A stretch of DNA of 64,000 nucleotides from an uncultured Candidatus Saccharibacteria bacterium (GCA_965230925.1 OZ246403.1:530230-594229); one strand, 5' to 3'. Shown: positions 17,688-46,132, counted from the first letter of the stretch. Numbers and translations: made by a program. The notes: a model not told the origin generated them from the sequence alone.

Positions 17688-17715
17688 AGACCTCTCAACG
17701 GAGAGGTCTTTTTGT
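17688..17715 (+). terminator. rho-independent terminator (agacctctc-aacg-gagaggtct + T-run)
   Basis: Perfect 9-bp stem, 4-nt loop, followed by ttttt. Confidence 0.6.
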
Positions 17716-17732
17716 GTTATGATGTCGAGCGT

Positions 17733-19646: not shown

Positions 19647-19649
19647 ACT

Positions 19650-20240: not shown

Positions 20241-20718
20241 GAATCACTTAGAACGCGCCCTGGGGCGAGCAAAAAACGAAATGAATTTGACCGAGGCCGA
20301 GGAGGCGAGTCTTAAGCAGGCTTTGGAGTGGAAAATGGGTGAGGAGAAACTGGTAAGAATCCCCGAAGACTATCGTCATCATGCTTGGTGGCGGGGTTTA
20401 GCCCTAGTTTTGCCACTCATTGTCATTTTTATCGCGGCGCGTCAAGTAACGGCACCAAGGCCGGACGTGTTGCCGCAAGTGTCGGATAGTGCTACCGAAA
20501 TGGTTGTACCCATGACGGTTCCCGTTGCTCCAGTTGCACCTCCTCCGGCACCGGTAATGCTGAAGCGAATGCCGGTGGTGGAACCGCCGGTGGCGCCAGT
20601 AGAGCCTCAGTTTCCTACGATGACGCCGTCAGCGGGTGGACTGATGTCTGTTCCAGAAGATGAGACAGAGTTGCTACGAGCCACCACGTCCACAAGTACG
20701 ATTGAGATTGAAGAATAA
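20239..20718 (+). CDS. putative anti-sigma factor / membrane-anchored regulator (single TM, Pro/Val-rich extracytoplasmic tail)
   Basis: Immediately downstream of the ECF sigma. One TM helix (WWRGLALVLPLIVIFIAA) and a low-complexity PVAPVAPPPAPV tail. No recognisable zinc-finger anti-sigma N-domain, so assignment is by context only. Confidence 0.4.
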   Translation: MNHLERALGRAKNEMNLTEAEEASLKQALEWKMGEEKLVRIPEDYRHHAWWRGLALVLPLIVIFIAARQVTAPRPDVLPQVSDSATEMVVPMTVPVAPVAPPPAPVMLKRMPVVEPPVAPVEPQFPTMTPSAGGLMSVPEDETELLRATTSTSTIEIEE

Positions 20719-20728
20719 TAAATTTATA

Positions 20729-29156: not shown

Positions 29157-29969
29157 ATGGCCTATCTTTTATTCGACATCGGTGGGACGAAAACGCGGTT
29201 GGCGCTCTCGGAAGACGGCAAGACATTTGGCGTGCCGGAGATTTTTGCGACGCCGAAGAACTTTGATGAAGGGATGCGGATGATTGAGGAGCGGGCGAGG
29301 ACCTTGGCGGAAGGGCAGGAGCTGGAGCGAGCCGCGGGCGGTATTTCTGGCACACTTAATCCCGATAAGACCACGCTCACTCACGCTACTCACTTGCCTG
29401 AATGGGTTAATGAGCCGCTCTTAGAACGTTTGCAAATTGCGCTCGACACCACGGTGACACTGGAGAATGATACAGCGGTGGTTGGTTTGGGCGAGGCGAT
29501 GGCTGGTGCGGGACGAGGGTTTGGCGTGGTGGTCTATCTCACGGTGAGCACGGGTGTTGGCGGAGTTAAAATTGAGCGGGGGAAGATTGATAGCCACACT
29601 TTCGGTTTCGAACCTGGTTTTCAGATTATTAATGAAGCGACGGGGGAGACGCTTGAGAGTGCGATCTCGGGCACGGCAATTGCGAAGAAGTATGGCAAGG
29701 CGCCGCGAGAGATCACGGACCAGGCCGTGTGGGATGAATGCGCGCGGATTCTCGCCGTGGGTGTGCACAACGCGATTCTTCATTGGTCGCCGGAGGTGGT
29801 GGTGATTGGTGGCAGTATGATGAAGGCGCCAGCGGGGATTAATGTGGCGGCAGTGACTGAACACTTGGCTAAATTACCTAATCCTTTGCCCGTTTATCCG
29901 CCCCTCAAGGCCGCGGCGCTCGGTGATTTGGGTGGCATCCACGGCGCTCTCGCTTTGCTCTCGGAGTAA
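29157..29969 (+). CDS. ROK-family sugar kinase (putative glucokinase)
   Basis: N-terminal LFDIGGTKTRLAL (ROK/glucokinase ATP-binding motif). 270 aa. Adjacent to pgi. Confidence 0.7.
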   Translation: MAYLLFDIGGTKTRLALSEDGKTFGVPEIFATPKNFDEGMRMIEERARTLAEGQELERAAGGISGTLNPDKTTLTHATHLPEWVNEPLLERLQIALDTTVTLENDTAVVGLGEAMAGAGRGFGVVVYLTVSTGVGGVKIERGKIDSHTFGFEPGFQIINEATGETLESAISGTAIAKKYGKAPREITDQAVWDECARILAVGVHNAILHWSPEVVVIGGSMMKAPAGINVAAVTEHLAKLPNPLPVYPPLKAAALGDLGGIHGALALLSE

Positions 29970-29988
29970 GGCGGTTTATACTATCGGC

Positions 29989-32900
29989 ATGAAAATTCAT
30001 CGCCGATTTTTTGTTGCTCTTTTATTAATTACTTTATTAGTTCCCGCTGTTAGTCGCGCACAAACCTCGCTTGATTTACTCCGAAGTTTTCTCAACATTC
30101 TTCAGATGCGTCTTGCGGGGACTGGTGGTGGCATGAACGCCGCGCCACGGCCTATTGGCGACTCGGGGATCCACATGCCAGAGGATGCCACTATTTTCCA
30201 AGGAGTTCAGCCAGCTATAAGCCCTGCTCCAATTCCTAACCGTGAACCGAATGCCAATGCTGGTGCGGATCAAACCCTTGCCCCGGGTGTGACCCAAGTT
30301 ACCCTCAATGGTTCTCTGTCGAGCGACTCTGATGGTCAAATTGTTTCTTATGTTTGGCGCAAGGGAAATTTTGTAGTGGGAACGGTGATGAATCCAACCA
30401 TTTCTCTCCCGGTAGGAACGCACACTATTACCCTCACGGTCACTGACGATGACGGGGCGCGTGATACCGATAGTGTAAACATTACAATAACCCCACCTGA
30501 CCAGAATCAAGAGCCTGTTGCCAACGCTGGTCCGGATCAGGTGGCCAATACGGGGACGCTTGTTTCTTTCAACGGAGCAAACTCAATAGATCCTGATGGT
30601 ACTATTACCCAACACCATTGGGATTTCGGTGACGGTGCTAGTATGGACGGGGCGACAGCTTTTCATACATACAGTACCCCTGCTGTACATACTGCCAGGC
30701 TTACCGTTACTGATGATGATGGGGCAACTGACGATGATACTGCTCTGATCACGGTGAGTATCGCTGACCCCTGCTCCTCCAACCTTCTTCCTGCCGCAAG
30801 CGCTGGCACTGACCAAACCGTTACCGAAGGCGCTACCGTTTCTTTCACCGGCACCGGTCTCGATCTTGATGGCACTATTACGGGTTACGCTTGGAACTTC
30901 GGTGACGGCAGCACTGGAAGTGGAGTAACACCCACCCACGTTTACACCACCACCGGTGTCTACACCGCCACTCTCACTGTCACGGATAATTGTGGTGCGT
31001 CGGCGAGTGACACCAGTACAATTACCATCAATGGAGTTAATTCTTGCGTTGATAATTCCGCTCCTCTTGCTAACGCGGGGATGGATCGTGTTGTTGGTGT
31101 TGGGGAAACGATATCCTTTAGTGGTTTAGATTCTGTTGATCCAAATATGGGAGACACTATTTTGAGTTACATGTGGTCTTTTGGGGATGGTTTTGGTGGG
31201 GTGTTTGGCGCTAACCAGAATCATGTTTATGACGAACCGGGAACTTATATTGCCCACTTGGTTGTGAAGGATGAATGCCAGTTTGTTCATTCTGATTCGG
31301 TTGAAATAACGGTTTTGGGTGTTCAGAACACCCCGCCCACTATCGTTTCAGTTTCTGGTGGCCCTACAACCATTACTTGGCCAAACAATTTCACTACTTT
31401 TTCTGCGGTGGTTACTGATGACCACCCTGAAATGCTGGTTTATCAGTGGGTTAAAGAAAGTGATTCCCAAGCAGAGGCGATACTAGAGCAATATTCTTTA
31501 ACGACCCCAGTATCTTTTCCCACAAAAAATAAAATTTACAAGTATCGTCTAAAGGTAACTGATAATGGGATTAGTGGAAGTGCGCCAGTTTTGTCAGACT
31601 TGATATCAATCTTTGTAGCAAATGGTTCTGGGTCTTGTTCGAATAACCACGTTCCAAATCTTACTGCAAACCCATCGGGTAACATCGGTGCGCAGGTAAA
31701 CCAAAATATAATTTTTTCTGGTTCAGCTACGGATCAAGATTCTGGACAAACCATAACTTATAAATGGAATTTTGGTGATGGTAGTGCCGAGATTGAGCAG
31801 GCGAATACAAATCATGCGTACAACACCTCCGGTGTTTATCTGGCTTATTTAACTGCCAGAGACAGTTGTGGTTCCGTGTCGATTAAACCTTCACGCATTG
31901 ATGTTTCTTCTTTGCAGGCAGAGTATTCTGTAAGTCGTCTGCTAGAGACAGAATGGGGTCGTCTAGTTTGGTCACCGTCAATTAATTTAGGTAGCGAAAC
32001 TGTCTCTAAAAACGAGTTTCTAAAGTTCAATGGCACCCTGTCTACGGGAGGACCATTTTCTCTACTAAGTTGGTTGTTTGGTGATGGGGGATTTGAGACG
32101 GGAGAAGTGGTTTATCATCAATATGATGATGTTGGTAATTATGGTGCCGCCCTATCTGTGTTTAGTCCTACGCAACAGAATATTTCGACCAACACAAAAA
32201 CGGTAAACGTGACAAATAAGATGACCTTCCTCGACGCCATGGGTCTAGCCGACGATTCTTCCATGGACATCGTCGCTCTCGGTTCCTACGCCTACACCAC
32301 CCACTCTACTGGTCTTCTCACTACTCTAGACATTTCTAACCCCAGCAATATGCAGATTACCAGCGCGTTCTCTGCTCCTATTGGTCGAGCGATCGCCGCC
32401 GCCAACAATCATGTTTATGTTGGCGCCTCCAGTCTTGGCCTCACCACGTACACCGCTACGGCTAACCCCACCTTTGTCGGTACCTACAACACCAACACGG
32501 TCGATGGTCAAAGCGTTCGAGACTTGATGGCTGAAGGCAAAGTGGTTTTCATGGCTGCTGGTCCGGCTGGTCTCAAGATTGTGAATATGAGTGACCCGGC
32601 CAATCCCACGGTTATTGCTTCAAAACTTTTGCCCAATAATGCTACGGCTGAAGTAATTCTGATTCAAGACGGCAGAGCCTATATCGCTGATACCTCAATG
32701 CGTGTTCACATCTACGATATCTCAATGATTAATGTGAATAATCCTGTGCCAGCTAACCCGATTCTTATTTCTACTCTTTCCCCCGGCTGGAATGTACACC
32801 AACTCGCTAGGGTGGGTGACGACACATTGGTTGCCCAAGCCAATCCCGGTGGTATGCATATTTATGATATTACTAACCCCGCAAGCCCCATTTTCCTCAC

Positions 32901-33189
32901 CAATTATGATTACTCTTCTGACGCTGGCGGTTTGTCTCCCGGTGGTATTCTTGGAACGGAAGACGGCTCCCTCTACGCTACCATGGGTCAAGTGATCGGT
33001 ATCGGCACTAGTGTGGCGCGAGTGAGCCTCCACAACCCTAGCGAACCCCGGATCATGGAATGGCTATCCCTCAATTCACAGGTAGCTGGTATCAACCGCG
33101 GACCATTCTTTGCCAATGATGATGTTTATGGGCGCATTCTTCTAATGGCCAATAGCAAGTACAAGGCGGTGGCGGTGGATGTGCCGTAG
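29989..33189 (+). CDS. giant secreted protein: multiple PKD domains + C-terminal LVIVD-repeat beta-propeller-like region (copy 1)
   Basis: Start at MKIHRRFFVALLLITLLVPAVSRAQ. Repeated WDFGDG...HVY...GTYTATLTVTD units (PKD). C-terminal repeats of the form AGPAGLKIVNMSDPANP / YDISMINVNNPVP / YDITNPASP resemble the LVIVD repeat. Confidence 0.7.
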   Translation: MKIHRRFFVALLLITLLVPAVSRAQTSLDLLRSFLNILQMRLAGTGGGMNAAPRPIGDSGIHMPEDATIFQGVQPAISPAPIPNREPNANAGADQTLAPGVTQVTLNGSLSSDSDGQIVSYVWRKGNFVVGTVMNPTISLPVGTHTITLTVTDDDGARDTDSVNITITPPDQNQEPVANAGPDQVANTGTLVSFNGANSIDPDGTITQHHWDFGDGASMDGATAFHTYSTPAVHTARLTVTDDDGATDDDTALITVSIADPCSSNLLPAASAGTDQTVTEGATVSFTGTGLDLDGTITGYAWNFGDGSTGSGVTPTHVYTTTGVYTATLTVTDNCGASASDTSTITINGVNSCVDNSAPLANAGMDRVVGVGETISFSGLDSVDPNMGDTILSYMWSFGDGFGGVFGANQNHVYDEPGTYIAHLVVKDECQFVHSDSVEITVLGVQNTPPTIVSVSGGPTTITWPNNFTTFSAVVTDDHPEMLVYQWVKESDSQAEAILEQYSLTTPVSFPTKNKIYKYRLKVTDNGISGSAPVLSDLISIFVANGSGSCSNNHVPNLTANPSGNIGAQVNQNIIFSGSATDQDSGQTITYKWNFGDGSAEIEQANTNHAYNTSGVYLAYLTARDSCGSVSIKPSRIDVSSLQAEYSVSRLLETEWGRLVWSPSINLGSETVSKNEFLKFNGTLSTGGPFSLLSWLFGDGGFETGEVVYHQYDDVGNYGAALSVFSPTQQNISTNTKTVNVTNKMTFLDAMGLADDSSMDIVALGSYAYTTHSTGLLTTLDISNPSNMQITSAFSAPIGRAIAAANNHVYVGASSLGLTTYTATANPTFVGTYNTNTVDGQSVRDLMAEGKVVFMAAGPAGLKIVNMSDPANPTVIASKLLPNNATAEVILIQDGRAYIADTSMRVHIYDISMINVNNPVPANPILISTLSPGWNVHQLARVGDDTLVAQANPGGMHIYDITNPASPIFLTNYDYSSDAGGLSPGGILGTEDGSLYATMGQVIGIGTSVARVSLHNPSEPRIMEWLSLNSQVAGINRGPFFANDDVYGRILLMANSKYKAVAVDVP

Positions 33190-33291
33190 GAGTTAGTTGG
33201 TAAATGTTGCCGACTAAGTAAATTTCTTCTCCAGTTTTGGTTATCAACAGCATTCTATACCGCTTCAAATAAGGCGGTTTATACTATCAAC

Positions 33292-36200
33292 ATGAAAATT
33301 CATCGCCGATTTTTTGTTGCTCTTTTACTAATTACTTTGTTAATTCCCACCGTCTCCCGGGCGCAGACCTCACTTGATCTTCTTCGGAGCTTTTTGAATA
33401 TTCTTCAGATGCAACTTTCTGGAGCCGGGGGCGGGATGAATGCTGCGCCACGACCACCCATCGAGCCACCCGGTTGGTTTTTGGATGAATATGATGCGAA
33501 TGTTCAGTTAGAGAATCATACTAGCTTATCACCCACACCCAACCAAGATCCTATTGCCCATGCTGGTGCGGATCAAACCCTTGCCCCGGGTGTGACCCAA
33601 GTTACCCTCAATGGTTCTTTGTCGAGTGACTCCGATGGTCAGATTGTTTCTTATGTTTGGCGCCGCGGCAGCTCGGTGGTTGGTCTTTCTGTAAACCCGA
33701 CGATTTCTTCTCTCGCTGTTGGTACCCACACCATTACGCTCACAGTTATTGACGATGATGGCGCCCGCGATACCGACAGTGTAAACATTACGATTACTGC
33801 CGCTCCTGATCCTTGTCTCAACAATCAAGCACCGACCGCTGTGCTTCAAGGACCGGCTACCGGCGAAATCAATCAAAACCTATTGTTCTCCGGGTTTCTC
33901 TCGACTGATCCTGAAACTGAACTTGGTTCACTACAATATCGCTTTACCTTTGGCGACGGTGTTGTGTCTGAATGGCAAAGTGCCACCGCAGATATTTTCC
34001 ATCATTACACTGCTGCTGGTATTTACACTGTTTCTTTGGAAGTTCGTGACTCTTGTGGGGCCATCGATGTTTCTGAACCACGACAAGTCGATATTGCTCC
34101 GAACCAAGCTCCTGTTGCCGATGCTGGCCCCGACCAGGTTGCCGATGCCGGGTCGCTAGTTTCTTTCTACGGCAACAATTCCTATGACCCTGACCTTTGG
34201 GGTGCGATTACCGAATACCACTGGGATTTTGGCGATGGTGCCAGCATGAATGGTCAAAGCGCTTTTCACGTCTACAGTACTCCCGCAATTTACACCGCTA
34301 CTCTCACCGTGACTGATGATGGTGGTGCTATTGATAATGACACTGCCCTGATCACAGTAAGCGTTTCTAATCCCTGCGCTAATAATAATCCACCCACGGC
34401 AAGTGCTGGTCTTGACCAAACGATCAATGAGGATACTTCTGTCTTTTTCGCCGGTTCTGGTACCGACACTGATGGTACCATCACTAGCTATGTTTGGGAC
34501 TTCGGTGATGGTGATACTGGAAACGGAGCAACTCCCACCCACGTTTACACTACTCCTGGATCATATTTTGCTACCCTCACGGTGACCGACAATTGTGGCG
34601 CCACCAGCTCTGATCAAGCTACTGTGACCGTTACAAGTTCAGCCCCTGCTCAAGTCCCACCTCGTGTTAATGCTGGTGTTGACCAAAGTAATCTCTCTTT
34701 CCCTACCACCGTTTCTTTGACCGGGTCAGTTGTCGGTTTCCCTGCCGGTTACAGTGTTGTGTGGACTAAAGTAGCTGGTCCCGGTACGGTTAATTTCTCA
34801 AATGGCAGCGGTCTTCAAACAAACGCCACCTTCTCAGCCGCCGGTCTCTACACCCTTAAGCTTACTGCAACCTCAGGTAGCTTAACCAGATCTGATACCG
34901 TTCAAATTGTTTTCAATCAAACAGTTTCAGTTAACGCTGGTCCTGACCGGATTCTCAATCTTTCGACCAGTAATCACCAAGGGTCCATTACCCTTGATGC
35001 TTCGGTAACAGCGAGTGACCCCGCTCCACTCTCATATTCTTGGTCTCAGGTTTCTGGACCATCTCAGCTCTCTATTACTGATAATCAAATTGCCGACATT
35101 GCCATTTCTTCTACTAAGGCCGGAACATATGTCTTGCGCTTGTTGGTGTCTGGTCCTGGTGTTATTCCGGTCCAGGACACCATGACACTCTTTGTTCGTG
35201 ACTTAGAGGCCGGAGAAACTAAAACTGTTGTTTGGCCAGCAACTGCCACTCTCTCAGGTGTTGCCACCAATTTCCCGACTGATACCACCTATCAATGGTC
35301 ACAGCAATCCGGTCCGGCAAATGGTGCCGTGTTCTCTCCCCCCAACAGCTTAAGCACCACAGTGAGTTTTCCTTCTCAACCCTCTGCGAGCGGAGACATT
35401 TACCAGTTACGTCTCACTGCTACTCCGCCAGGTGAGTCACCAATCATCGACACCGTTCAGGTTAATGTTAATCCAACCGGTAGTTTGGGTGTTAATGCCG
35501 GACCAGATCAATTAAACCTGGTATTTACTTCGCCCTCAGCTACGATCAACCTTACTGGTACAGCGGTTAATGTCCCTTCTGGTACCGCCTACAAATGGAC
35601 GAGAACCTCAGGTCCTGCTGCAGGAGTTGTGTTTTCACCTAGCGATACAGTTCTTAGTCCCACAGTGACCTTAACCCAAGCTGGGAATTACACCTTCCAA
35701 CTAAAAGCCACGCCCCCAGCTGGAGTTCAGATGATTGATTCAGTGAATATTACTTTCAATCTTAACCCTACCAATGTTCTCGCTGAAGCATCGCCTCATT
35801 ACTTAACCTGGCCTAATGATTCAACGAGCTTAAACACTCACTTCTCTGATTCTAATCCTGGGGTGGTAAATGCCGCCTGGACGCAATATTCTGGGCCAAC
35901 GGGTGGAAACACCACGTTTGCTAATGAAAATGCTTTCGATACCACGGCGACCTTCAATCAAACCGGGCAATTCGGTCTTAGGGTTGTGCTTAATGATGGG
36001 TTAGCTTTTTCACCACAAGACGAAATTTCAGTTAATGTCTATCCCGCTTGTGATGCAAACAATCAACCACCAGTAGCTTCAGGTAGTTATGATCAATGGG
36101 CGCAAGTTAATCACCCGGTACCTTTGTCTGGGTCTGCACCCATTGCCTCCAGTGACTCCGACGGTCTCATTGCTTCACATTACTGGGATTTTGGAGACGG

Positions 36201-37641
36201 AAGTTTTGCGGTCGGGAGTTCCCTTTCCCATAGCTACAGTCAGCCAGGAACCTATACTGCTACTCTGACTGTGGCTGATAATTGTGGGCAGGTAGCTACC
36301 AAAGAAATTAAAGTTCACGTTATACCCGTTACTCCTGGGGCCTTCAACCCAATTCTCAAACTTTATAAACTCGAGACAGTAAACCCAATTACCGGTGAAG
36401 AAAACTGGACCGAGCTTGTGGGAAACAATCTCGCGGTGAGCACTGGTGATTTCATCCGCTTCGATTTGCTTTCTAGTACCGGTAGCCTCGGTTTATTTAG
36501 CTGGAGTACCAATGCTGGTGCTGGAGAATCTCAGTCATTCTACGGTGGTCTTGCTAACTTTATCCGTTTCATCGAACCGAGTGATAACAATTCTCCGTAT
36601 CAGTTGAATGTTACTGTCTACTCTGAAGATTTTTCCTCCCAAGTTAATTTCACGAGAACCATTGAAGCAAACAATCTTCTCACTTTCCTGGATGATGGTA
36701 GTCCGATTAACGGAGAAAATTCTTTTGATGTGGCGGTAGATGGTAATTTGGCTTTTACCGCGCACAACAATAGTCTGTTGAGCAAAATCGATATCACCAA
36801 TCTTCCTAATATTCAAGTAGTAAATTCTGTTAGTGCGCCCGGAGGTCAAACAGCCATTGCTGCTTCCAATAACCACGTGTATGTTGGTGCCGGTAATCAG
36901 GGAATATTTATCTACCGTCAAGATGATCTTGATCACCTTACGACCTATAACACTTCTGGTCAGGATGGACAGAGTGTCCGTGATCTTTACGCGAGAGGCA
37001 AGGTTGTTATCGTGGCTGCTGGTAATCCGGGGATCAAGGTGCTTGATATGACTAATCCTGCTCAGCCAAACCTGATTGCGAATATCGACCTCCCTCTGGC
37101 TAATGATAGCGCTTCTCGTTTAGTGGTGACTGGTAGTCGGCTATATGTTTCTAGTGTCAATCGGGTTTATGTCTACGATATTTCTGGCCTTAACTTTAAT
37201 AACCCTCAGCCCTTTACTCTTCAGTTACTAGGGACGCTGGCGATGAATGCTCCTGGAGTTTCTGTGTTTGGGATATATGTTTCTGGAGATATCTTACTCG
37301 TTGATGGCGGTGGAAAAATGTTCCTTTACAGCTTGGTAGATCTCTCAAACATCGTTCAGGTTGGCTACTTTGATCCCGGCATTCAACAGGCGGGCATGTT
37401 TTCTGTTTTTGACGGTCGCGCTTACTTTACGACGGGACCGATTTCTGGCTATGGCACATCAGTCTTTCGCGTTGATGTGGCAAACCCATCTTCCCCACAG
37501 ATTGTAGAAACTCTATCCCCTCAAGTAATTTCTGGGACGTTAAGAAATCCGGTTTTGCATGATGTGGGAGGGGGTCTAGGGAAAGTATTCTTCTACGCGG
37601 CGTCGGAGGATGTGATTGTGGCGATTGATGTTGCCGACTAA
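33292..37641 (+). CDS. giant secreted protein: multiple PKD domains + C-terminal LVIVD-repeat region (copy 2, tandem paralog)
   Basis: Same N-terminus (MKIHRRFFVALLLITLLIPTVSRAQTSLDLLRSFLNILQM). Same PKD and LVIVD architecture, 1449 aa. Flanking non-coding sequence is also duplicated. Confidence 0.7.
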   Translation: MKIHRRFFVALLLITLLIPTVSRAQTSLDLLRSFLNILQMQLSGAGGGMNAAPRPPIEPPGWFLDEYDANVQLENHTSLSPTPNQDPIAHAGADQTLAPGVTQVTLNGSLSSDSDGQIVSYVWRRGSSVVGLSVNPTISSLAVGTHTITLTVIDDDGARDTDSVNITITAAPDPCLNNQAPTAVLQGPATGEINQNLLFSGFLSTDPETELGSLQYRFTFGDGVVSEWQSATADIFHHYTAAGIYTVSLEVRDSCGAIDVSEPRQVDIAPNQAPVADAGPDQVADAGSLVSFYGNNSYDPDLWGAITEYHWDFGDGASMNGQSAFHVYSTPAIYTATLTVTDDGGAIDNDTALITVSVSNPCANNNPPTASAGLDQTINEDTSVFFAGSGTDTDGTITSYVWDFGDGDTGNGATPTHVYTTPGSYFATLTVTDNCGATSSDQATVTVTSSAPAQVPPRVNAGVDQSNLSFPTTVSLTGSVVGFPAGYSVVWTKVAGPGTVNFSNGSGLQTNATFSAAGLYTLKLTATSGSLTRSDTVQIVFNQTVSVNAGPDRILNLSTSNHQGSITLDASVTASDPAPLSYSWSQVSGPSQLSITDNQIADIAISSTKAGTYVLRLLVSGPGVIPVQDTMTLFVRDLEAGETKTVVWPATATLSGVATNFPTDTTYQWSQQSGPANGAVFSPPNSLSTTVSFPSQPSASGDIYQLRLTATPPGESPIIDTVQVNVNPTGSLGVNAGPDQLNLVFTSPSATINLTGTAVNVPSGTAYKWTRTSGPAAGVVFSPSDTVLSPTVTLTQAGNYTFQLKATPPAGVQMIDSVNITFNLNPTNVLAEASPHYLTWPNDSTSLNTHFSDSNPGVVNAAWTQYSGPTGGNTTFANENAFDTTATFNQTGQFGLRVVLNDGLAFSPQDEISVNVYPACDANNQPPVASGSYDQWAQVNHPVPLSGSAPIASSDSDGLIASHYWDFGDGSFAVGSSLSHSYSQPGTYTATLTVADNCGQVATKEIKVHVIPVTPGAFNPILKLYKLETVNPITGEENWTELVGNNLAVSTGDFIRFDLLSSTGSLGLFSWSTNAGAGESQSFYGGLANFIRFIEPSDNNSPYQLNVTVYSEDFSSQVNFTRTIEANNLLTFLDDGSPINGENSFDVAVDGNLAFTAHNNSLLSKIDITNLPNIQVVNSVSAPGGQTAIAASNNHVYVGAGNQGIFIYRQDDLDHLTTYNTSGQDGQSVRDLYARGKVVIVAAGNPGIKVLDMTNPAQPNLIANIDLPLANDSASRLVVTGSRLYVSSVNRVYVYDISGLNFNNPQPFTLQLLGTLAMNAPGVSVFGIYVSGDILLVDGGGKMFLYSLVDLSNIVQVGYFDPGIQQAGMFSVFDGRAYFTTGPISGYGTSVFRVDVANPSSPQIVETLSPQVISGTLRNPVLHDVGGGLGKVFFYAASEDVIVAIDVAD

Positions 37642-37743
37642 GTAAATTTCTTCTCCAGTTTTGGTTATCAACAGCTTTTGTAGGTTATCATTAGTGGTGA
37701 GAGTAAAATATCTCCGTTATTAGTTAATTTTTATCAAAAATCT

Positions 37744-40074
37744 ATGGCCGGAGCCCAAAAAATTGCCAAAATTGCCAAAAATTCACTGAAAAGCGTGAAA
37801 AAGCGTGATGGAACAACAGTTCCGTTCGAAGAAGAGCGAATTGTGGTGGCGGTGGGCAAGGCGATGAAGGCTTCTGGCGAGGGCACCGAGGCGCAGGCTG
37901 CACAAGTGGCTAAGTCGGTGACTAAGGATCTTACGGCTCTGGTTAAGGAAATGGGGGCGGGCTTTATTCCGTCTGTGGAGGGGGTGCAAGATTTGGTGGA
38001 GAAGCAGCTCATTCTCCATAATTTGGTAAAAACTTCTAAGGCCTACATTCTCTATCGTCAGCGTCGCACCGATTTGCGTCAACAGATCGGCGAAGTGCCC
38101 AAAGAGGTAAGGGAACTGGTCACCGAGAGTAAGAAATATTTCCGCAATCAACTTTCCGAGTTTGTTTATTACACCACTTACTCCCGTTGGCTTGATGATA
38201 AGAATCGTCGCGAGACTTGGCTTGAGACGGTAGGTCGTTACTTGAGTTTTATGAAGGAGAATTTGGGGGACAAGTTGAAAGATAAGGAATATGCCGAGAT
38301 TCGCGAGTATATGCTGGCGATGAAAGCTCTTGGTTCGATGCGCCTTTTGCAGTTCTCGGGTAAGCCGGCAGCGCGAGATAATGTGGCCGCTTACAATTGC
38401 GCTTACACCGCCCCTTCAAGTTGGCAAGACTTTGGCGAGATTGTATATATTCTCATGCGCGGGACGGGGATTGGCTTCTCGGTGGAGGAGCAAAATATTG
38501 GTGTACTCCCCATGATTAAACGTCAGACAGGAGAGAAGGCTACCACCCATGTGATCCCCGATAGCGCCGAAGGTTGGGCAGACTCTCTGGTGCATGGGAT
38601 GAAGACTTGGGCGGCGGGGAAGGATGTTATTTTTGATTACTCGGAGTTGCGACCGCGCGGGGCACGACTCAAGACTATGGGCGGCCGCTCATCGGGGCCG
38701 GATCCACTGCGTAATTTGCTTAACTTTACTCGGGAGCGGATGCTGGCGCGCCAGGGTCGCCGCCTTAAGACTATTGATGCTCACGATATTATTTGCAAGA
38801 TCGGCGAGGTGGTGGTGGCGGGTGGGGTGCGCCGCTCGGCCCTGATCTCGCTCTCTGGTCTCGACGATGTGGAAATGCGCGAGGCCAAGAATGGCCAATT
38901 TTATCTCACGAATCCCGAGCGTTCGATGGCCAACAATTCGGTGTCTTACAATGAGAAGCCGACGATGCCGCAATTTTTGGATGAGTGGGTAAATTTGGCC
39001 AAGGCTGGTTCGGGCGAGCGGGGCATCTTCAATCGTGGTGGACTTAAATCGCAATTGCCGACGCGCCGGTGGAAAGTCTTTGAAAAAGACCTCGACACTT
39101 CGGGGACTAATCCTTGCGGCGAGATTGTGCTCAAGTCGAAGCAATTTTGTAATCTCTCGGAAGTGGTGGCGCGACCAGAAGATACGGAAGAAAGTTTGAT
39201 GGAAAAGGTGCGCATCGCGACTATTCTCGGTACTTATCAAGCGACCTTAACTCACTTCCCATATCTTTCTAAGGCTTGGAAGGAACACTGTGAGGAAGAG
39301 GCCTTGCTTGGTGTCTCGATTACCGGTCAATGGGATGCACCAGTGCTCCGCTCGCCAGCGGTGTTTCGGAAACTTAAAGAAGTGGCAATTGAGACCAATC
39401 GCAAATATGCCGAGCGTTTTGGTGTCAATCGCTCAACTTGTATTACGACAGTAAAGCCGTCGGGGAATGGTTCCCAACTTTTCGATTCATCTTCTGGGAT
39501 GCATCCGCGTCATGCGCCGTATTACATTCGTCGCGTGCGCATTGAGGGCCATAATCCCATTTTCCACATGCTTAAAGATATGGGTGTGCCCTATCATCCG
39601 GAAGTGGGTCAAGACCCCACGACTGCCACTACCTTTGTCCTCGAATTTCCTATTCATGCGCCGAAGAGTAAGGTGTATAAAGATGGCCTTACCGCTATTG
39701 AGCAACTCGAATATTGGAAAATGGTGAAAGAGAATTACACCGAACATAATCCTTCTACTACGATTTCCGTGAGTGAGGACGAGTGGCTTAAGGTGGGGAA
39801 TTGGGTTTATGAGAATTGGGAAATGATTGGTGGACTCTCCTTCCTCCCGCGCTCCAACCACGTCTATCGCCTCGCGCCGTATGAAGAAATTACCGCCGAG
39901 CAATATGAAGAACTGGTGTCCAAGTTCCCAGCCATCGATTTCTCTAAGCTCGTGCTCTACGAGAAAGAAGATGAGACAACAGTAAAGAAAGAACTTGCCT
40001 GCGTCGCCGGCGTCTGCGAAATTGATCTCCCGACAGCAGAAGCGTTGCCTACGAGCTCAAGTTCGAAATCTTAA
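37744..40074 (+). CDS. nrdJ: ribonucleoside-diphosphate/triphosphate reductase, adenosylcobalamin-dependent (class II)
   Basis: 776 aa. Carries the class II active-site motif TNPCGEIVL and RNR barrel segments (MRGTGIGFS, GGRSSGPDPL). Confidence 0.8.
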   Translation: MAGAQKIAKIAKNSLKSVKKRDGTTVPFEEERIVVAVGKAMKASGEGTEAQAAQVAKSVTKDLTALVKEMGAGFIPSVEGVQDLVEKQLILHNLVKTSKAYILYRQRRTDLRQQIGEVPKEVRELVTESKKYFRNQLSEFVYYTTYSRWLDDKNRRETWLETVGRYLSFMKENLGDKLKDKEYAEIREYMLAMKALGSMRLLQFSGKPAARDNVAAYNCAYTAPSSWQDFGEIVYILMRGTGIGFSVEEQNIGVLPMIKRQTGEKATTHVIPDSAEGWADSLVHGMKTWAAGKDVIFDYSELRPRGARLKTMGGRSSGPDPLRNLLNFTRERMLARQGRRLKTIDAHDIICKIGEVVVAGGVRRSALISLSGLDDVEMREAKNGQFYLTNPERSMANNSVSYNEKPTMPQFLDEWVNLAKAGSGERGIFNRGGLKSQLPTRRWKVFEKDLDTSGTNPCGEIVLKSKQFCNLSEVVARPEDTEESLMEKVRIATILGTYQATLTHFPYLSKAWKEHCEEEALLGVSITGQWDAPVLRSPAVFRKLKEVAIETNRKYAERFGVNRSTCITTVKPSGNGSQLFDSSSGMHPRHAPYYIRRVRIEGHNPIFHMLKDMGVPYHPEVGQDPTTATTFVLEFPIHAPKSKVYKDGLTAIEQLEYWKMVKENYTEHNPSTTISVSEDEWLKVGNWVYENWEMIGGLSFLPRSNHVYRLAPYEEITAEQYEELVSKFPAIDFSKLVLYEKEDETTVKKELACVAGVCEIDLPTAEALPTSSSSKS

Positions 40075-40109
40075 CCCTTTACTTCTGTTGTTTTGTTTGG
40101 TAAAGTAAC

Positions 40110-40470
40110 GAAGCTTGGTGCTGAGTGATTGCTCGCCAAAAGCCCTTACAGGGCATTTAGGCGGGAGGAAAGTCCGAACACTGCGAATGATCTTTTGATC
40201 AGGGAAGGGTAGAAGGTAATTCCTTTCCGTCGTGAGACGGAGATGCGAACAGAAACGCCAAAGCCGAAAGGCAGAGGGTTCCCTCGTGGAATAGTTTTGC
40301 CGCAAGGCAAGAATGAAACGGCTAAACTCTTACCTCAGTGCAAGGTCGTGCTCCGACGTTCAAACTGAAAGGTTTGAAGTTGGAGAGTGCCGCTTGATCC
40401 GTCGGGTGACCGACGAGACAGATAAATAATCACACAGAACAGAATTCGGCTTACGGGCACCAAGTTTACC
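40110..40470 (+). ncRNA. rnpB: RNase P RNA (bacterial type A-like)
   Basis: Conserved P4 strands GGAAAGUCCGAAC (40163 region) and ACAGAAUUCGGCUUAC (40437-40452). The P1 5' strand gaagcttggtgc pairs with the 3' gcaccaagttt. The 3' region agacagataaataatcac...acagaattcggcttacggg parallels E. coli gAUAGAUGAAUGACUG...ACAGAACCCGGCUUAUCGG. No credible ORF lies in this interval. Confidence 0.75.
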
Positions 40471-40540
40471 CCGACGTAACGTCGGGGCAGGAATCAAAAA
40501 TTCTCCCTTTGCGGGGGAATTTTTGTGTTATGATTATTGG
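40469..40540 (+). terminator. tandem hairpins after rnpB (accccgacg-taa-cgtcgggg; aaattctccc...gggggaattt + T-run)
   Basis: Two GC-rich stem-loops, the second followed by tttttgtgtt. Confidence 0.5.
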
Positions 40541-42692
40541 CGCCATGGCAGTTGCTAAAGCAAAGAAGGTTAAAGTTTTTCCATTCGATCTCATTGTGTC
40601 GTGGCTTGTCTTCGCGTTGCCGCTCGTTGCGCTCATTTTTTTCTTACCGCTTGGTTTACCCCTCGAGTTTAGCAAGCAGGTAATAGTTGCGGTGCTTGTT
40701 TGCCTTGGTTTTGGTCTTTTTTTTCTCGCTCGGTTGCAAGACCAAACTTTCTCTTTCCCTGGGTATCCTCTTTTGCTTGCTTTTTTTTCCGTGGTTCTTG
40801 TTTCTGCTCTTTCTGGTCTTTTTTCTTCAGCCCGCCTTCCTGCCCTTTTTGGTTTGGGTGGAGAAACTTCTACCACGATTACTTTCGCTTTTGGTTTAGT
40901 GATTACTTTTCTTACCAGTCTTTATCTTAGAGATAAGACGCGGATTTTTTGGCTTATGCTTGGTTTGCTGATTGGTTTTCTTCTTGTTTTTCTGACTCAG
41001 ATTGTTCAGTTGATCACTAGTTGGAATTTTGTCTGGATCGGTTTTTCTTATGATGCGGCCGTATTTGCTGGTTTGGCGGCCGTGCTTTCTCTCTCGGCGC
41101 TGGAACTCTGGCCACTTAAGACTTCACCCTGGCGCTGGTTTATGGTTGTTGCCCTGGTACTTTCCCTTGCATACCTTGCCCTCGCCAATCTTGTGCCCTT
41201 GTGGTTTCTGATCACGCTCGTGTCACTCATTTTGCTTGTTTATCAATTGGTGGTTTCTTCGTCATGGACGTATGGCGTTTTGCGCCCATCGTTTTTTGTC
41301 CTCGTTGTCTCTCTGCTCTTTTTTCCACTTCTTGCCTCTCATACTAATTTACTCGGTTCAAGTTTGAATTGGGTGGGAGATAAAATTGGTTGGTCGCGGC
41401 CCTTAGAAATTAAATATCCTGCCACTTCCTTGTTTGGTCAATTACCTGAGACGGTTTTGGGTACTGGGCCAAGTACTTTTACTAGAGAGTGGATCAAGGA
41501 ATCACCGACCTTGGTCAATCGCAATGATGACGGAAAGACAATTTTTCCTTGGGGTCTGGGAACTTGGTTGCGCGCTCCGCTTGAGACTGGTTGGCTTGGG
41601 GTGGTGAGCTGGCTTGCTTTTCTTGGTACCCTTTTGTTTTATGGGGCGAAGTTTCTGAACCAACTTTTTGCGGGCAAGCGTGCCCCGGGCTTCTTCCTTA
41701 TTTTTCTCGGTGCGGTGTACTTGTGGTGTCTTAATTTGTTTTATGCGCCAGGTTTTGCCCTTACTGCCTTGACCTTCACTTTCACCGGTCTTGTTGTGGC
41801 TGAGGCAGCCGGTCTCGGCTTTATCCCAAGTCTTAATTACGAAGCGAAAGGGGTTGGCCGAACGATTTTTGTCACCCTTTCGGTTCTTCTTTTGATCGCG
41901 AGTGTTTTGGGAGGATATTTTTTCCTTCAACGATTAGTCGCGCGTTATCATTTCACTCGCGCCTTGGCTTATTCGCAAGAAGCAAATCAAACCGTGGCGG
42001 TGCGGGCTGAACTTGCTCGAGCCATTGAGCTAGAAGAAAATGATTTATATCTCCGGGCCCTTACCGAGTGGGGAACCCTTCGCTTGAATGAATTACTAGC
42101 AAGTAGTGGTTTGCCAGCCGAGACTCTTCAGCAAGAGGCGAGCGCGGCCATTACCACTGCCACCACGGCGGGTCAGCAAGCTCTCGCTTATCGAGAAAGT
42201 GCTGAAAATTGGTTTACCCTCGGCTCTTTTTATGAGCGGCTTATCCCACTTGAGATTAATGGAGCTTCCGCAGAAGCGATGAAGGCTTATCAAGCGGCTC
42301 AAGCCTTGAGTCCTTACGACCCAGTAATTCGCCAGGCTGAGTCTCGTCTGGCTGAGGCTGCTGGTGACTTAAATCAAGCGGCAGCGCTCGCCGGTGATGT
42401 GGTGCGCTTGGCTCCCACAGACTTTACCGCTTGGTTCCGCTTGGGCGTTCTTGCTTACCGTTTGAATGATATGGAAACTGCTCGTTTAACTCTTGAGCGC
42501 GCGCTTGTCTTGAATCCTGGCTACGCCAATGCCCGCTACTTCCTGGGCCTTACTTACGACAAACTTGGTCTCCGTGACGCGGCCCTTGACCAATTCACAG
42601 CTGTTGAGCAGACTAATCCTGATAACCAAGACGTGAAAGCAATTTTGAACAATTTACGGTCGGGTCAGCCAGCCCTCTCTACCGGCGAGTAG
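40530..42692 (+). CDS. polytopic membrane protein with C-terminal TPR repeats (possibly O-antigen ligase/Wzy_C-like)
   Basis: About 440 aa of multiple TM helices followed by TPR-like repeats (AWFRLGVLAYRLNDMETARLTLERALVLNPGYANARYFLGLTYDKLG). Start taken at the first ATG after the rnpB terminator. The family call is tentative. Confidence 0.45.
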   Translation: MIIGAMAVAKAKKVKVFPFDLIVSWLVFALPLVALIFFLPLGLPLEFSKQVIVAVLVCLGFGLFFLARLQDQTFSFPGYPLLLAFFSVVLVSALSGLFSSARLPALFGLGGETSTTITFAFGLVITFLTSLYLRDKTRIFWLMLGLLIGFLLVFLTQIVQLITSWNFVWIGFSYDAAVFAGLAAVLSLSALELWPLKTSPWRWFMVVALVLSLAYLALANLVPLWFLITLVSLILLVYQLVVSSSWTYGVLRPSFFVLVVSLLFFPLLASHTNLLGSSLNWVGDKIGWSRPLEIKYPATSLFGQLPETVLGTGPSTFTREWIKESPTLVNRNDDGKTIFPWGLGTWLRAPLETGWLGVVSWLAFLGTLLFYGAKFLNQLFAGKRAPGFFLIFLGAVYLWCLNLFYAPGFALTALTFTFTGLVVAEAAGLGFIPSLNYEAKGVGRTIFVTLSVLLLIASVLGGYFFLQRLVARYHFTRALAYSQEANQTVAVRAELARAIELEENDLYLRALTEWGTLRLNELLASSGLPAETLQQEASAAITTATTAGQQALAYRESAENWFTLGSFYERLIPLEINGASAEAMKAYQAAQALSPYDPVIRQAESRLAEAAGDLNQAAALAGDVVRLAPTDFTAWFRLGVLAYRLNDMETARLTLERALVLNPGYANARYFLGLTYDKLGLRDAALDQFTAVEQTNPDNQDVKAILNNLRSGQPALSTGE

Positions 42693-42695
42693 GCC

Positions 42696-44372
42696 ATGGT
42701 CCAGGGCGTGATTCGACTGTTTCAGCGGGAGTTTGGCCGCCTTGAAGAGGCGGCGCTTTTGCTTGGTGCCTCGGCCCTGGTCTCTCAGCTCTTAGCTCTT
42801 GTTCGCGACCGGCTACTTGCGGCGCGTTTTGGTGCGGGGGTTGATCTTGATATTTACTATGCCGCGTTTCGCGTCCCAGACCTTATCTACGTCGCGGTGG
42901 CCTCGCTTGTTTCTCTTACGGTGGTCATTCCGGTTTTAGTTACTCATCTCGACCAAGGCAACACGGCTCGAGCGAAGCGTTTTCTCGACAGTCTCTTTAC
43001 AGTTTTTAATATTTTGATGATCGTGGTTATGGCCGTGGCTTTTCTCCTTATGCCCATTATTACTCGGTTTTCAGCGCCGGGTTTTGGTGGCCCGGCAGCG
43101 GAGGAGCTCATTCAACTTTCACGTTTACTCCTACTCTCGCCGCTTTTTCTTGGTCTTTCTAATTTATTTGCAAGTATTACCCAATCGTTTAAGAAATTCT
43201 TTGTCTATGCCTTGAGCCCGGTTTTTTATAATCTTGGGATCATTGTTGGGATTATTTTCTTCACGCCGCAATTTGGTTTGCTTGGTCTTGGTCTTGGTGT
43301 GGCGCTCGGCGCCCTGTTGCATCTTCTGGTTCAAGTGCCGGTGGTAATGAGTTTGGGCCTTACGCCGATTCCTACTTTGCGAATTGCTTGGTCTGAGGTG
43401 AAGCAGACGATGTATTTATCTCTACCAAGAACTCTCGCGCTTTCCGTACACCAATTAGTAATTTTAATCTTGGTGGGACTTGCTTCCCTTATGGCCGCAG
43501 GATCAGTCGCCGTGTTTAACTTTGCCTACAATCTCCAGTCGGTGCCTATTGCGATTGTGGGCCTCAGTTACTCGGTTGCGGCCTTTCCCACTTTAGTCCG
43601 GCAATTTCATAATGGCGACAAGAAAATATTTCTCGAGCAGGTGAGTCGCGCTGTCCGCCAGATTATGTTTTGGTCAATTCCTTTCGCCGTTCTTTTAATT
43701 GTTCTTCGAGCGCAAATTGTTCGGGTCATTCTTGGCGCTGGTGAATTTGATTGGACCGACACGCGTTTAACGGCCGCGGCGGTTGCTGTGTTCTCTCTTT
43801 CTCTCGTAGCTCAGAGTTTGGTCTTGCTCTTTGTTCGCGCTTATTATGCGGCAGGGAAAACGCGTCAACCGCTTATCATCAACTCCCTTTCTTCTCTTCT
43901 TGTTGTGATTTTTGCTGGTCTTTTGGTTTGGTGGTTTAAAGCTGATTCCGCTTTGGCCTCGCCACTCGCTCTTCTCTTGCGTCTAGGTGATGTGCCTGGA
44001 GCCGAAATGGTTATTTTACCCACCGCTTTTTCCCTTGGCCTTTTGATTAACTGGCTGGTTCTCGCACGATTCTTCCGACGCGATTTTGGCCCGCTTGCGG
44101 GGGTGGGCCGCGCCTTTTGGCAAATTGTTGTCGCCAGTTTGGCTGGCGGGGTTGCGAGTTATCTTGTTCTCAATGTTTTAGCTCCCGAGCTCGAGCAAAA
44201 CACTTTCAGTGGAATTTTTACGCAAGGTTTAGTGGCAGGGCTCGTCGGAATTGGCGTAATTGTGTTAGGGTTAAGACTGCTTGGCAACCGAGAGCTTGCT
44301 GATGTCAGCCGCGCCTTTTCTCAGCGTTTTTGGCGGACTAAGGTCATTGCTCCGGAGCCGAGTGAGATGTAA
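42696..44372 (+). CDS. murJ: lipid II flippase MurJ (MviN)
   Basis: LGASALVSQLLALVRDRLLAARFGAGVDLDIYYAAFRVPDLIY matches the MurJ N-terminal signature. 558 aa, polytopic. Confidence 0.8.
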   Translation: MVQGVIRLFQREFGRLEEAALLLGASALVSQLLALVRDRLLAARFGAGVDLDIYYAAFRVPDLIYVAVASLVSLTVVIPVLVTHLDQGNTARAKRFLDSLFTVFNILMIVVMAVAFLLMPIITRFSAPGFGGPAAEELIQLSRLLLLSPLFLGLSNLFASITQSFKKFFVYALSPVFYNLGIIVGIIFFTPQFGLLGLGLGVALGALLHLLVQVPVVMSLGLTPIPTLRIAWSEVKQTMYLSLPRTLALSVHQLVILILVGLASLMAAGSVAVFNFAYNLQSVPIAIVGLSYSVAAFPTLVRQFHNGDKKIFLEQVSRAVRQIMFWSIPFAVLLIVLRAQIVRVILGAGEFDWTDTRLTAAAVAVFSLSLVAQSLVLLFVRAYYAAGKTRQPLIINSLSSLLVVIFAGLLVWWFKADSALASPLALLLRLGDVPGAEMVILPTAFSLGLLINWLVLARFFRRDFGPLAGVGRAFWQIVVASLAGGVASYLVLNVLAPELEQNTFSGIFTQGLVAGLVGIGVIVLGLRLLGNRELADVSRAFSQRFWRTKVIAPEPSEM

Positions 44373-46132
44373 TGCCAATCAGAAATTTTTCGATTATTGC
44401 CCATATTGACCACGGCAAGTCAACGCTTGCTGACCGACTGCTAGAGGCGACCGGCGCTATTGAGAAGCGGCGGATGCGCGAGCAGTTTCTTGACATGATG
44501 GAACTCGAGCGCGAGCGCGGCATCACGATTAAGATGCAGCCGGTGCGCTTGAGTTATCAAGGTCATATTTTAAATCTCATCGACACGCCCGGCCACATCG
44601 ATTTTTCTTATGAAGTCTCGCGCGCTCTCGCGGCCGTGGAAGGAACTCTACTTTTAGTAGACGCCACGCGCGGTGTGCAGGCGCAAACCCTTTCCGTTCT
44701 CGCCATGGCCCAAGAGCTCAACCTCGTTATCATTCCGGTGATTAACAAAATTGATTTACCGGTAGCGCGGGTCGAGGAGACCAAGCAGGAAATTATTCAC
44801 TTACTTCACTGTAAGCCAGAAGACATTATTTTAGTCTCAGCAAAAACAGGGGAAGGCCTTGAAGACTTGCTTAAAGCGATTGTGGCCAAGGTTCCGGCGC
44901 CAAAAGCTGAAGTGAGTGCCGCTAGTCTTCAGGGTCTCGTTTTCGATTTTGAATATTCGCCGCATCGAGGTGTTATTGTTTATACGCGACTTTTCCAAGG
45001 GGAAATTAAACCTGGCGATGAATTAATGTTTGCCACTTCTCGCCGACGTTTTAAGGTCATTGAAGTGGGTGTGTTTCGACCGGAAAAAGTAGCTACGGAA
45101 GCATTGCGCCCGGGTGAAATTGGTTATGTGGTGACCGGGATTAAGGAGACCGGCCAAGCCAAAGTGGGTGATACCTTAGTTTCTGCTCGCGCTCCAGCAC
45201 CAGCGCTTCCCGGTTACGGTGAGGCAAGGCCAGTAGTCTGGGCGTCATTGTATCCGGAAAATCAAGATGATTTCGTAAGTTTGCGTCAGGCGCTCGGCGC
45301 GCTTCAGCTTTCTGATTCTTCCTTTTCTTTTGAAGAAGAGTCGTCTGGCGCTCTCGGCCGTGGTTTCCGAGTTGGTTTTCTGGGGATGCTTCACTTAGAG
45401 ATTATTACCGAGCGCCTGCGGCGAGAATTTAAATTACAGCTTGTTGTGACTTTGCCCTCCATTAGTTATGAGGTAAGTGGTAAACTCATTTATTCTCCAC
45501 ACCTTTTTCCCGATGATCCGAAGAGTGAAGTAATTCAAGAAACCTGGGTGAGCGCCAAAATTATTACACCACCAGATTATTTAGGAGAAATTATTAAACT
45601 TCTCAATGAGCACGAGGGTCACATTGCTGAGACCGAGAGCTGGAGCGAGACTAGAACGGTGGTCCGTGCCGAGATGCCCTTGCGGGAACTCATGCGGCAA
45701 TTCTTTGATGAATTGAAAAGCGCGACTTCAGGCTTTGCCTCGCTTACTTATGAGCCGATTGCTTGGCGACCGGCTGATGTGGTGCGACTCGATATCTTGG
45801 TGGCAGAAGAGTTGGTGCCGGCTTTTTCGCGCGTGGTGGCCAGGGCGCGACTTCAGGTAGAAGCTGAGGCTTTGGTAGAGAAATTGGCCGACCTTTTACC
45901 CCGCCAACTTTTCGTCTTGAAGATTCAAGCTAAGGCTCTCGGGCGAATTCTCTCGTCACGCTCCTTGAGCGCGCTTAAGAAAGATGTGACCGGCTATCTC
46001 TACGGTGGTGATATTACCCGCAAGCGCAAACTCTGGGAGAAGCAAAAGCGCGGTAAGAAAAAACTCCTCGAGCGAGGGAAAGTAGACATCCCACAAGATG
46101 TGTTTCTGGCGATGCTTAACTCAAGAAAATAG
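44372..46132 (+). CDS. lepA: elongation factor 4 (LepA)
   Basis: N-terminus IRNFSIIAHIDHGKSTLADRLLE, G-domain motifs DTPGH and NKID, and a LepA C-terminal domain. Confidence 0.9.
   Translation: MPIRNFSIIAHIDHGKSTLADRLLEATGAIEKRRMREQFLDMMELERERGITIKMQPVRLSYQGHILNLIDTPGHIDFSYEVSRALAAVEGTLLLVDATRGVQAQTLSVLAMAQELNLVIIPVINKIDLPVARVEETKQEIIHLLHCKPEDIILVSAKTGEGLEDLLKAIVAKVPAPKAEVSAASLQGLVFDFEYSPHRGVIVYTRLFQGEIKPGDELMFATSRRRFKVIEVGVFRPEKVATEALRPGEIGYVVTGIKETGQAKVGDTLVSARAPAPALPGYGEARPVVWASLYPENQDDFVSLRQALGALQLSDSSFSFEEESSGALGRGFRVGFLGMLHLEIITERLRREFKLQLVVTLPSISYEVSGKLIYSPHLFPDDPKSEVIQETWVSAKIITPPDYLGEIIKLLNEHEGHIAETESWSETRTVVRAEMPLRELMRQFFDELKSATSGFASLTYEPIAWRPADVVRLDILVAEELVPAFSRVVARARLQVEAEALVEKLADLLPRQLFVLKIQAKALGRILSSRSLSALKKDVTGYLYGGDITRKRKLWEKQKRGKKKLLERGKVDIPQDVFLAMLNSRK

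Follow-up and report, generated by a model that had tools for sequence, protein, structure and literature searches.

Two adjacent genes for large secreted proteins raise the question of how paralogues that have diverged to saturation at their silent sites came to share three short tracts of near-identical DNA. The genes are co-oriented on the plus strand of a 64,000-nucleotide stretch from an uncultured bacterium deposited as Candidatus Saccharibacteria (GCA_965230925.1, OZ246403.1:530230-594229); this whole stretch is referred to here as the window, and coordinates are positions within it unless a contig is named. Gene 1 (29989..33189, 1066 amino acids) and gene 2 (33292..37641, 1449 amino acids; protein P0001) were delimited by open reading frame and profile matches, and each encodes a secreted protein with an array of PKD domains and a C-terminal LVIVD beta-propeller. 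Our answer, which we hold to be probable though by no means secure, is that these are ancient mosaic tandem paralogues which later underwent short-patch gene conversion with one another. By this account the three tracts, of 48-104 nucleotides, would have been homogenised much later than the divergence of the pair, presumably through short-patch, non-reciprocal homologous recombination between the adjacent copies.

The first of the tracts, tract A, straddles the start codons (29967..30035 and 33270..33338), and comprises 19 nucleotides of upstream sequence, a two-nucleotide difference, and then the ATG and first 15 codons. Within it, 19 exact nucleotides (29967-29985) are followed by the difference (GG/AA) and by 37 exact nucleotides (29988-30024) which run across the ATG and the first 12 codons, such that 56 of 58 positions agree. 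Tract B (30257..30360 and 33560..33663) occupies 104 nucleotides of the first PKD domain and includes an exact run of 59 nucleotides, its four mismatches (C/T, C/T, T/C and A/G) all being synonymous transitions at third positions. Tract C (33204..33251 and 37628..37675) lies at the 3' ends of the genes and is identical in 48 of 48 nucleotides. The copies of tract A are 3303 nucleotides apart and flank gene 1, and those of tract C are 4424 nucleotides apart and flank gene 2. An earlier note on this DNA had reported 18 nucleotides before the two starts to be identical apart from two, some 45 identical nucleotides at the gene ends, and a near-identical stretch of about 100 nucleotides inside the genes (30258-30360 versus 33561-33663); all three observations were reproduced here, with the extents given above. 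Self-comparison disclosed no identical tracts beyond those that had been quoted, yet the three are significant by themselves.

The degree of identity in the tracts is far beyond chance. In a codon alignment, the proportion of synonymous differences (pS, Nei-Gojobori) is 0.18 in the coding portion of tract A and 0.15 in tract B, versus 0.74-0.80 (saturated) in all other segments, which agrees with the earlier description of the codons next to the tracts as diverged at synonymous sites. Silent divergence in the tracts is significantly below that of their flanks, the pattern by which gene conversion is recognized. At identical residues, identical codons are used in 29 of 33 cases within tract B and 13 of 15 within tract A, compared with 82 of 198 outside (Fisher tests, 4e-7 and 8e-4, respectively). 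The 59-nucleotide exact run stands on a background of 70% identity and was reached in none of 2000 shuffles, and the longest run of third-position matches (24) was reached in none of 5000. Apart from tracts A, B and C, the window contains no exact repeat of at least 22 nucleotides; the at least eight tandem paralogues of substrate-binding proteins found elsewhere in the window, which serve as an internal control, share no exact repeat of that length.

Patches of this kind might also be made by the assembly process itself, were the pair collapsed, chimeric or mis-joined, or were the patches homogenised by mis-mapped reads during polishing. The source is indeed a metagenome-assembled genome, assemblers can be misled by paralogous repeats, and the earlier note had warned of assembly errors at such loci. 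We nonetheless regard an artefact as very improbable here, on the strength of independent contigs from Logan k=31 assemblies, looked up via gene products truncated at predicted de Bruijn break points. Three such contigs are 100% identical to the window: L063 covers 30286-33233 and reproduces residues 100-1066 of gene 1, L062 covers 33589-37657 and reproduces residues 100-1449 of gene 2, both of them in five sequencing runs, and L061 covers 37646-44409, with one run listed and its first gene carried by three contigs. At their ends the contigs reach exactly 30 nucleotides (k-1) into the perfectly matching portion of tract B or C; L063 and L062 terminate 30 nucleotides into their copies of tract C, and L061 begins 30 nucleotides before the end of the second copy. 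As breaks at k-1 nucleotides inside the tracts mean that these occur twice in the reads, the repeats are real. Furthermore, the exact repeats are no longer than 59 nucleotides, which ordinary reads span, such that the order of the pair can be resolved, and the flanks of the tracts are 26-60% diverged, so that reads would be unable to cross-map. The pair is correctly assembled and a misassembly is very unlikely, and the earlier warning does not apply to it. The two gene-body contigs (2.9 and 4.1 kb, each in five runs) moreover show both gene bodies to be invariant across those runs, and no tract is shared with the third paralogue described below; the earlier description of the conversion as ongoing and of the family as variable is not sustained on either count.

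The ancestry of the two genes is composite. Their shared N-terminal module shows 78% protein identity over the first 170 residues and about 70% in the PKD domains that follow, with silent sites saturated outside the tracts. Residues 1-420 of gene 2 are closest to residues 1-320 of gene 1 (56-91% in 60-residue windows), apart from an extra PKD domain at about residues 175-270 (33814..34101, plus strand), which is without counterpart in gene 1. The middle module of gene 2 (about residues 421-1080; 34552..36531, plus strand) likewise has no counterpart in gene 1, and its closest relative is residues 1343-1998 of the third paralogue, P0002 (53-82% at the amino acid level, about 62% at the nucleotide level), from which it may have been derived or with which it may be held in common. 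P0002 (2390 amino acids) is encoded at another locus of the same contig (L001, 10001-17173), between tRNA-Pro(UGG) and tRNA-Pro(GGG); its leader differs from that of the pair, and it lacks all three tracts. The propeller of gene 2 (about residues 1120-1449) is again closer to that of gene 1 (28-62%) than to that of P0002 (31-44%). A recent exchange with P0002 is ruled out, as the pair has no exact match to it longer than 18 nucleotides, and the lack of any long exact match to this distant locus fits an exchange that depends upon proximity.

Gene 1, for its part, is more closely related, in its body as in its propeller, to proteins of other organisms than to its neighbour. Its residues 79-1066 are 46-49% identical to P0057 and P0045, and its propeller is 69-73% identical to theirs (about 65% at the nucleotide level against the P0057 gene), compared with about 38% to the propeller of gene 2; on these identities, a lateral spread of the propeller module is possible. 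More generally, P0045, P0057, P0042, P0020 and P0100, all from other bacteria, align collinearly with gene 1 along about 1000 residues at 38-49% identity (up to 73% in the propeller), but differ from the pair in having other N-terminal leaders, with neither the MKIHRRFF leader nor the DNA tracts. In the two contigs examined (L064, 5794-9453, and L065, 5312-8710), P0057 and the more distant homologue P0100 are single-copy and stand in unrelated contexts, P0100 among neighbours of Gram-negative type. Neither an alignment of the leader nor the DNA of tract C gave a match in JGI metagenomes. Judged by these comparisons, genes 1 and 2 are ancient, co-oriented mosaic tandem paralogues of a family that appears to have been rebuilt by module exchange. 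The earlier note had proposed an older tandem duplication with ongoing conversion, of which the old paralogy and the conversion stand; a plain duplication does not, given that the middle of gene 2 is nearest to P0002 and the propeller of gene 1 is nearest to those of other organisms, and neither does the word ongoing.

Upon this background, the tracts are most simply accounted for by a non-reciprocal exchange between the genes. This applies especially to tract B, which lies inside the coding sequence and would be a plain intragenic conversion patch. Its RNA folding is no better than that of shuffled sequence (z of -0.05 and +0.58 for the two copies) and an Rfam search of tract B returned no match, on which grounds an embedded RNA was rejected. 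An antisense gene over tract B was likewise set aside, as the open reading frame in question could be assigned to no protein family, and the resemblance between its copies simply follows from the sense-strand coding sequence. Members of the Candidate Phyla Radiation (CPR) are rich in diversity-generating retroelements, and a repeat of about 100 nucleotides within a surface-protein gene of a CPR genome calls to mind the template and variable repeats of such an element. We give this reading almost no credence: the mismatches of tract B are synonymous transitions of both kinds rather than adenine-specific changes, which refutes it, the tract occupies an N-terminal PKD domain and not a C-terminal variable domain, and the genes scanned include no reverse transcriptase.

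The direction of copying can be read, in our view, from tract C. In gene 2 this tract consists of GAT GTT GCC GAC TAA, that is, the last 12 coding nucleotides and the stop codon, followed by 33 nucleotides of 3' flank. Gene 1 ends in GAT GTG CCG TAG, and its copy of tract C begins 14 nucleotides later, in another frame and wholly in non-coding sequence. The earlier note had called the stop codon of gene 1 premature relative to gene 2. However, the alignment of the two proteins extends to the final residues of gene 2, and the C-terminus of P0045 (...KYKAVAVDVP) is the same as that of gene 1; by this shared end, the stop of gene 1 is evidently native. Because the last codons of gene 2 recur out of frame after a conserved stop, copy 1 of tract C must have been copied rather than inherited in place. 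It reads as an extra, copied piece of the end of gene 2, deposited just past the native stop of gene 1, and as such offers direct evidence of non-reciprocal copying. Whereas tract B has four silent differences in 27 silent sites, tract C has none in 48 nucleotides, where roughly seven would be expected at the silent-site divergence of B; tract C is therefore either younger than B or constrained, even though its first copy is non-coding.

Some constraint at the RNA level is plausible given the structures in which the tract takes part. The 14-nucleotide spacer after the stop of gene 1 is approximately the reverse complement of the first 11 nucleotides of tract C, and spacer and tract together form an 11-bp hairpin (33193..33217, plus strand; -12.3 kcal/mol, z of -4.9, equalled in 0 of 200 shuffles). 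A hairpin is also found at 37619-37635, its 3' arm being the start of the second copy of tract C. On its own, tract C has little tendency to fold (-7.7 kcal/mol, z of -1.3), and this, together with the lack of an integrase in the window and the length of the genes (3-4 kb), dismisses an integron attC site. Typical integron cassettes are far smaller than 3-4 kb.

Tract A would span a hairpin 3' arm, a -10-like box six nucleotides before the ATG, and the first 15 codons. The hexamer TATACT ends six nucleotides before the start codon of both genes (29977..29982 and 33280..33285, plus strand), and is likely to be a leaderless promoter. Across the window, a TANNNT hexamer ends exactly six nucleotides before the start in 10 of 35 genes, and no other spacing accounts for more than four; both genes directly upstream of the pair belong to the 10 (examples of such starts are 28010, 29157, 29989, 33292 and 4207). 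Shine-Dalgarno-like motifs, by comparison, occur within 12 nucleotides of only 2 of the 35 starts, and at the usual -9 to -6 of none. The fixed spacing and the near-absence of ribosome-binding motifs together argue for leaderless promoters, and suggest that this genome uses leaderless transcription widely. With such a promoter before each of them, genes 1 and 2 would each be transcribed separately.

These putative promoters also bear upon the annotation of gene starts, including that of gene 1, and as a side observation this may be as useful as the main finding. The mechanical open reading frame of gene 1, which is also the NCBI call (P0021), starts at a GTG at 29923 and yields 1088 amino acids, the length given in the earlier note along with the 1449 amino acids of gene 2. 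The GTG lies within the preceding ROK-family gene, whose end is at 29969, and the ATG at 29989 is homologous to that of gene 2 and stands in the same sequence context. For these reasons we take gene 1 to be 29989-33189, and its protein to be 1066 residues long rather than 1088; the length given for gene 2 is retained.

In tract A, as in tract C, the opening nucleotides form the 3' arm of a hairpin, and the 5' arm, which is contributed from outside the tract, is not the same sequence in the two copies. Upstream of gene 1 this is a terminator-like hairpin over the stop codon of the ROK gene (29950..29974, plus strand; -13.8 kcal/mol), whose 3' arm, AAGGCGG, falls in tract A, and upstream of gene 2 the same 3' arm is paired with another 5' arm (33259..33278, plus strand; -8.9 kcal/mol, z of -4.2). 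It is possible that these arms act in a terminator-like manner, or that they reflect fold-back synthesis during copying. As tract A overlaps expression signals, selection may contribute to its identity, and conversion is not the sole force that could be at work.

This reasoning can be carried further, to a reading in which no recent exchange took place at all, and in which tracts A and C at least are old sequence held by purifying selection on a nucleotide-level function (a 5' hairpin, -10 box and leaderless start region in the one case, and a 3' terminator or stability element in the other). The -10-like box of tract A sits at the distance from the ATG which the genome prefers, the 3' hairpin arm of tract A has been rebuilt with another 5' arm in each copy, tract C opens with such an arm in both copies as well, and both tracts stand exactly at gene boundaries. 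Promoters and terminators do tolerate variation, however, and agreement at 48 of 48 and 56 of 58 positions on a saturated background exceeds normal constraint. The identity of tract A moreover extends over 12 codons, silent sites included, copy 1 of tract C carries terminal codons of gene 2 out of frame past a native stop, as expected of copying, and tract B lies within a PKD domain with no signal of structure or motif. On balance we judge selection without exchange to be unlikely.

Some of these points, together with others, weigh against gene conversion as we have proposed it. Two of the three, A and C, fall precisely on the 5' and 3' boundaries of the genes, where flanking homology is lowest. 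Random conversion would not be expected there, and the placement argues for functional selection or a different mechanism; that A and C both start at a hairpin 3' arm with differing 5' arms suggests RNA-level constraint. The flanks of the tracts are only 40-75% identical, and conversion there would be inefficient for recombination of the RecA type. Last, a scan of GTDB representative genomes with the N-terminal 170 residues gave generic PKD matches only, with no relative of the leader and no orthologous tandem pair. What most likely acted in addition to conversion is selection, following the exchange, on promoter and terminator modules common to both genes; at tracts A and C this would probably help to preserve a likeness first established by copying.

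The layout of the tracts admits one further reading, namely that they are maintained as recombination handles, direct repeats joined to shared leaderless-promoter and 3'-hairpin modules which would allow deletions, hybrids and module swaps without a dedicated recombinase. The geometry fits (the copies of A around gene 1, those of C around gene 2, and those of B internal), the family is clearly mosaic, and the adhesin families of Helicobacter pylori, with conserved ends and variable middles, operate in this way (PMC3960876). If it were true, the pair would represent a simple cassette system by which an episymbiont of the CPR with a minimal genome might change its host-attachment proteins. We attach only a slight chance to it, given that the gene-body contigs were each found in five runs and no variant contig was returned, that the exchange with P0002 is old (about 62% nucleotide identity, with no long exact match), that no inverted repeat of 20 nucleotides or more occurs in the window, and that neither a recombinase nor a reverse transcriptase is present among the neighbouring genes scanned. 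Site-specific inversion, or phase variation of the shufflon type, was rejected on similar grounds, as inverted repeats are absent from 29500-38200 and the neighbours include no recombinase. RecG is the only gene of homologous-recombination type seen in the window.

Gene conversion between surface-protein paralogues has ample precedent. In H. pylori, the adhesin loci babA/babB, sabA/sabB/hopQ and homA/homB are highly similar at one or both ends (5' and/or 3') but divergent in between, and intragenomic, RecA-dependent conversion between such paralogues gives rise to chimeras and to concerted evolution of the end segments (PMC3960876). The present pair resembles these Hop/Hom families in being surface-protein paralogues with similar ends and divergent middles. 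The H. pylori proteins are nonetheless unrelated beta-barrels of the outer membrane, whereas those described here are PKD arrays with a LVIVD propeller; the loci are dispersed in H. pylori and tandem here; and the conserved segments of H. pylori amount to hundreds of nucleotides, with conversion seen between strains, in contrast to tracts of 48-104 nucleotides without variation across five runs. What the locus conveys is that CPR genes for large secreted proteins of this type are open to module exchange and to homogenisation in short patches between paralogues, much as are the adhesin families of well-studied pathogens. It requires no new mechanism and is in that sense fairly ordinary, its value being that of a clearly documented case which independent assemblies support.

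The two proteins are built alike, from a Sec signal peptide, a short conserved helix, an array of PKD/immunoglobulin-like domains and the C-terminal propeller, in keeping with the features which the earlier note had ascribed to both. Each begins with MKIHRRFFVALLLITLL...SRA/QTS, a Sec-type signal peptide that is the sole hydrophobic segment; neither protein has an LPXTG motif or a C-terminal hydrophobic segment, which rules out anchoring by sortase. The profile searches for PKD and LVIVD that the earlier note had called for were positive. PKD_4, PKD and K319L-like PKD (PF18911, PF00801 and PF22352) match both proteins strongly, above the curated cut-off and in several tandem copies, with scores of 332.6 bits for PKD_4 (six stretches) and 147.7 bits for K319L-like PKD in gene 1, and of 304 and 240.4 bits (the latter in seven stretches) in gene 2. 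When the C-terminal segments of about 340 residues were scanned alone, LVIVD (PF08309) scored 52.8 bits in gene 1 (three stretches) and 28.7 bits in gene 2 (two stretches), against a Pfam cut-off of 20.2 bits; a scan of the full-length proteins listed it for gene 1 only.

The propeller of gene 1 (32194..33186, plus strand) is thus delineated by a Pfam match and also by structure prediction, and that of gene 2 (36652..37638, plus strand) by its Pfam match and by window comparison. An AlphaFold2 model of residues 713-1066 of gene 1 has a mean predicted local distance difference test score (pLDDT) of 92.5 and a predicted template-modelling score (pTM) of 0.89, and is all-beta, with about 30 strands. 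Its top structural matches in the PDB are seven- and eight-bladed propellers (TM 0.6-0.7, at most 14% identity), and a search of the PDB by sequence returned no related solved structure. The proteins are most likely cell-surface binding proteins, for which an attachment or adhesive role may be proposed.

The end of the signal peptide, ..[ST]RAQ, is shared by several secreted proteins of this genome, including the pair (29989-30150 and 33292-33450), the open reading frames at 16861-17664 and 17607-19646, and P0002 (L001, 10001-10150). In some of these it directly precedes an amphipathic helix (SLDLLRSFLNILQM, LDYSSLLKILEQL and SLWSRILSRF; in P0002, LIWELLSRINQISLL), and the combination may constitute a lineage-specific sorting or anchoring motif.

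Bacteria of the CPR have tiny genomes, and many depend on attachment to a host cell. As such, their large secreted PKD/propeller proteins are candidates for host recognition. Proteins comparable to the pair by domain content, that is, secreted proteins with multiple immunoglobulin-like or PKD domains from CPR of the Paceibacteria type, are known from Patescibacteria that parasitise methanogens, in which secreted PKD, immunoglobulin-like and peptidoglycan-binding proteins with predicted structures are among the highly expressed genes (PMC10936435). The LVIVD repeat itself (PF08309, 42 amino acids) was first described in surface proteins of the archaeon Methanosarcina acetivorans (PMC2447325), and the pair is akin to these cell-surface proteins in carrying LVIVD repeats above the cut-off within a secreted protein and a predicted beta-propeller. 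The closest LVIVD-only proteins, at 22-32% identity, are about 700 amino acids long, and several have a type IX secretion system (T9SS) sorting domain, although the search in question used the C-terminal 427 residues of gene 1 and missed known close homologues.

Upstream of the pair lie genes for RecG, a Kelch protein, a PGI-like protein and the ROK kinase, and downstream those for a class II ribonucleotide reductase, a TPR protein, MurJ and LepA; both members of the pair (P0001 and P0021) are located on an NCBI contig of 715,934 bp. Exact-protein look-ups for P0001, P0021 and the ROK, PGI and RecG proteins found no record. LepA is at most 68% identical to any entry of the protein collection, its named best matches coming from Candidatus Vogelbacteria, Paceibacterota and Parcubacteria; on these data the bacterium belongs to a poorly sampled, Paceibacteria-like lineage of the Patescibacteria (CPR), with a small genome.

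Elsewhere in the window, the tandem paralogues mentioned above occupy 1943-16669, and comprise at least eight co-oriented genes for Liv-type periplasmic substrate-binding proteins (Peripla_BP_6), accompanied by permease and ABC ATPase genes. Beside them, on the minus strand, is a tRNA-Ile with the anticodon UAU (16676-16748), an uncommon bacterial route to the decoding of AUA. A cluster of genes for secreted proteins with dockerin, peptidoglycan-binding and PKD domains follows (16861-23059), arranged around a gene for an extracytoplasmic function (ECF) sigma factor (19650-20171), with a possible anti-sigma gene at 20239-20718.

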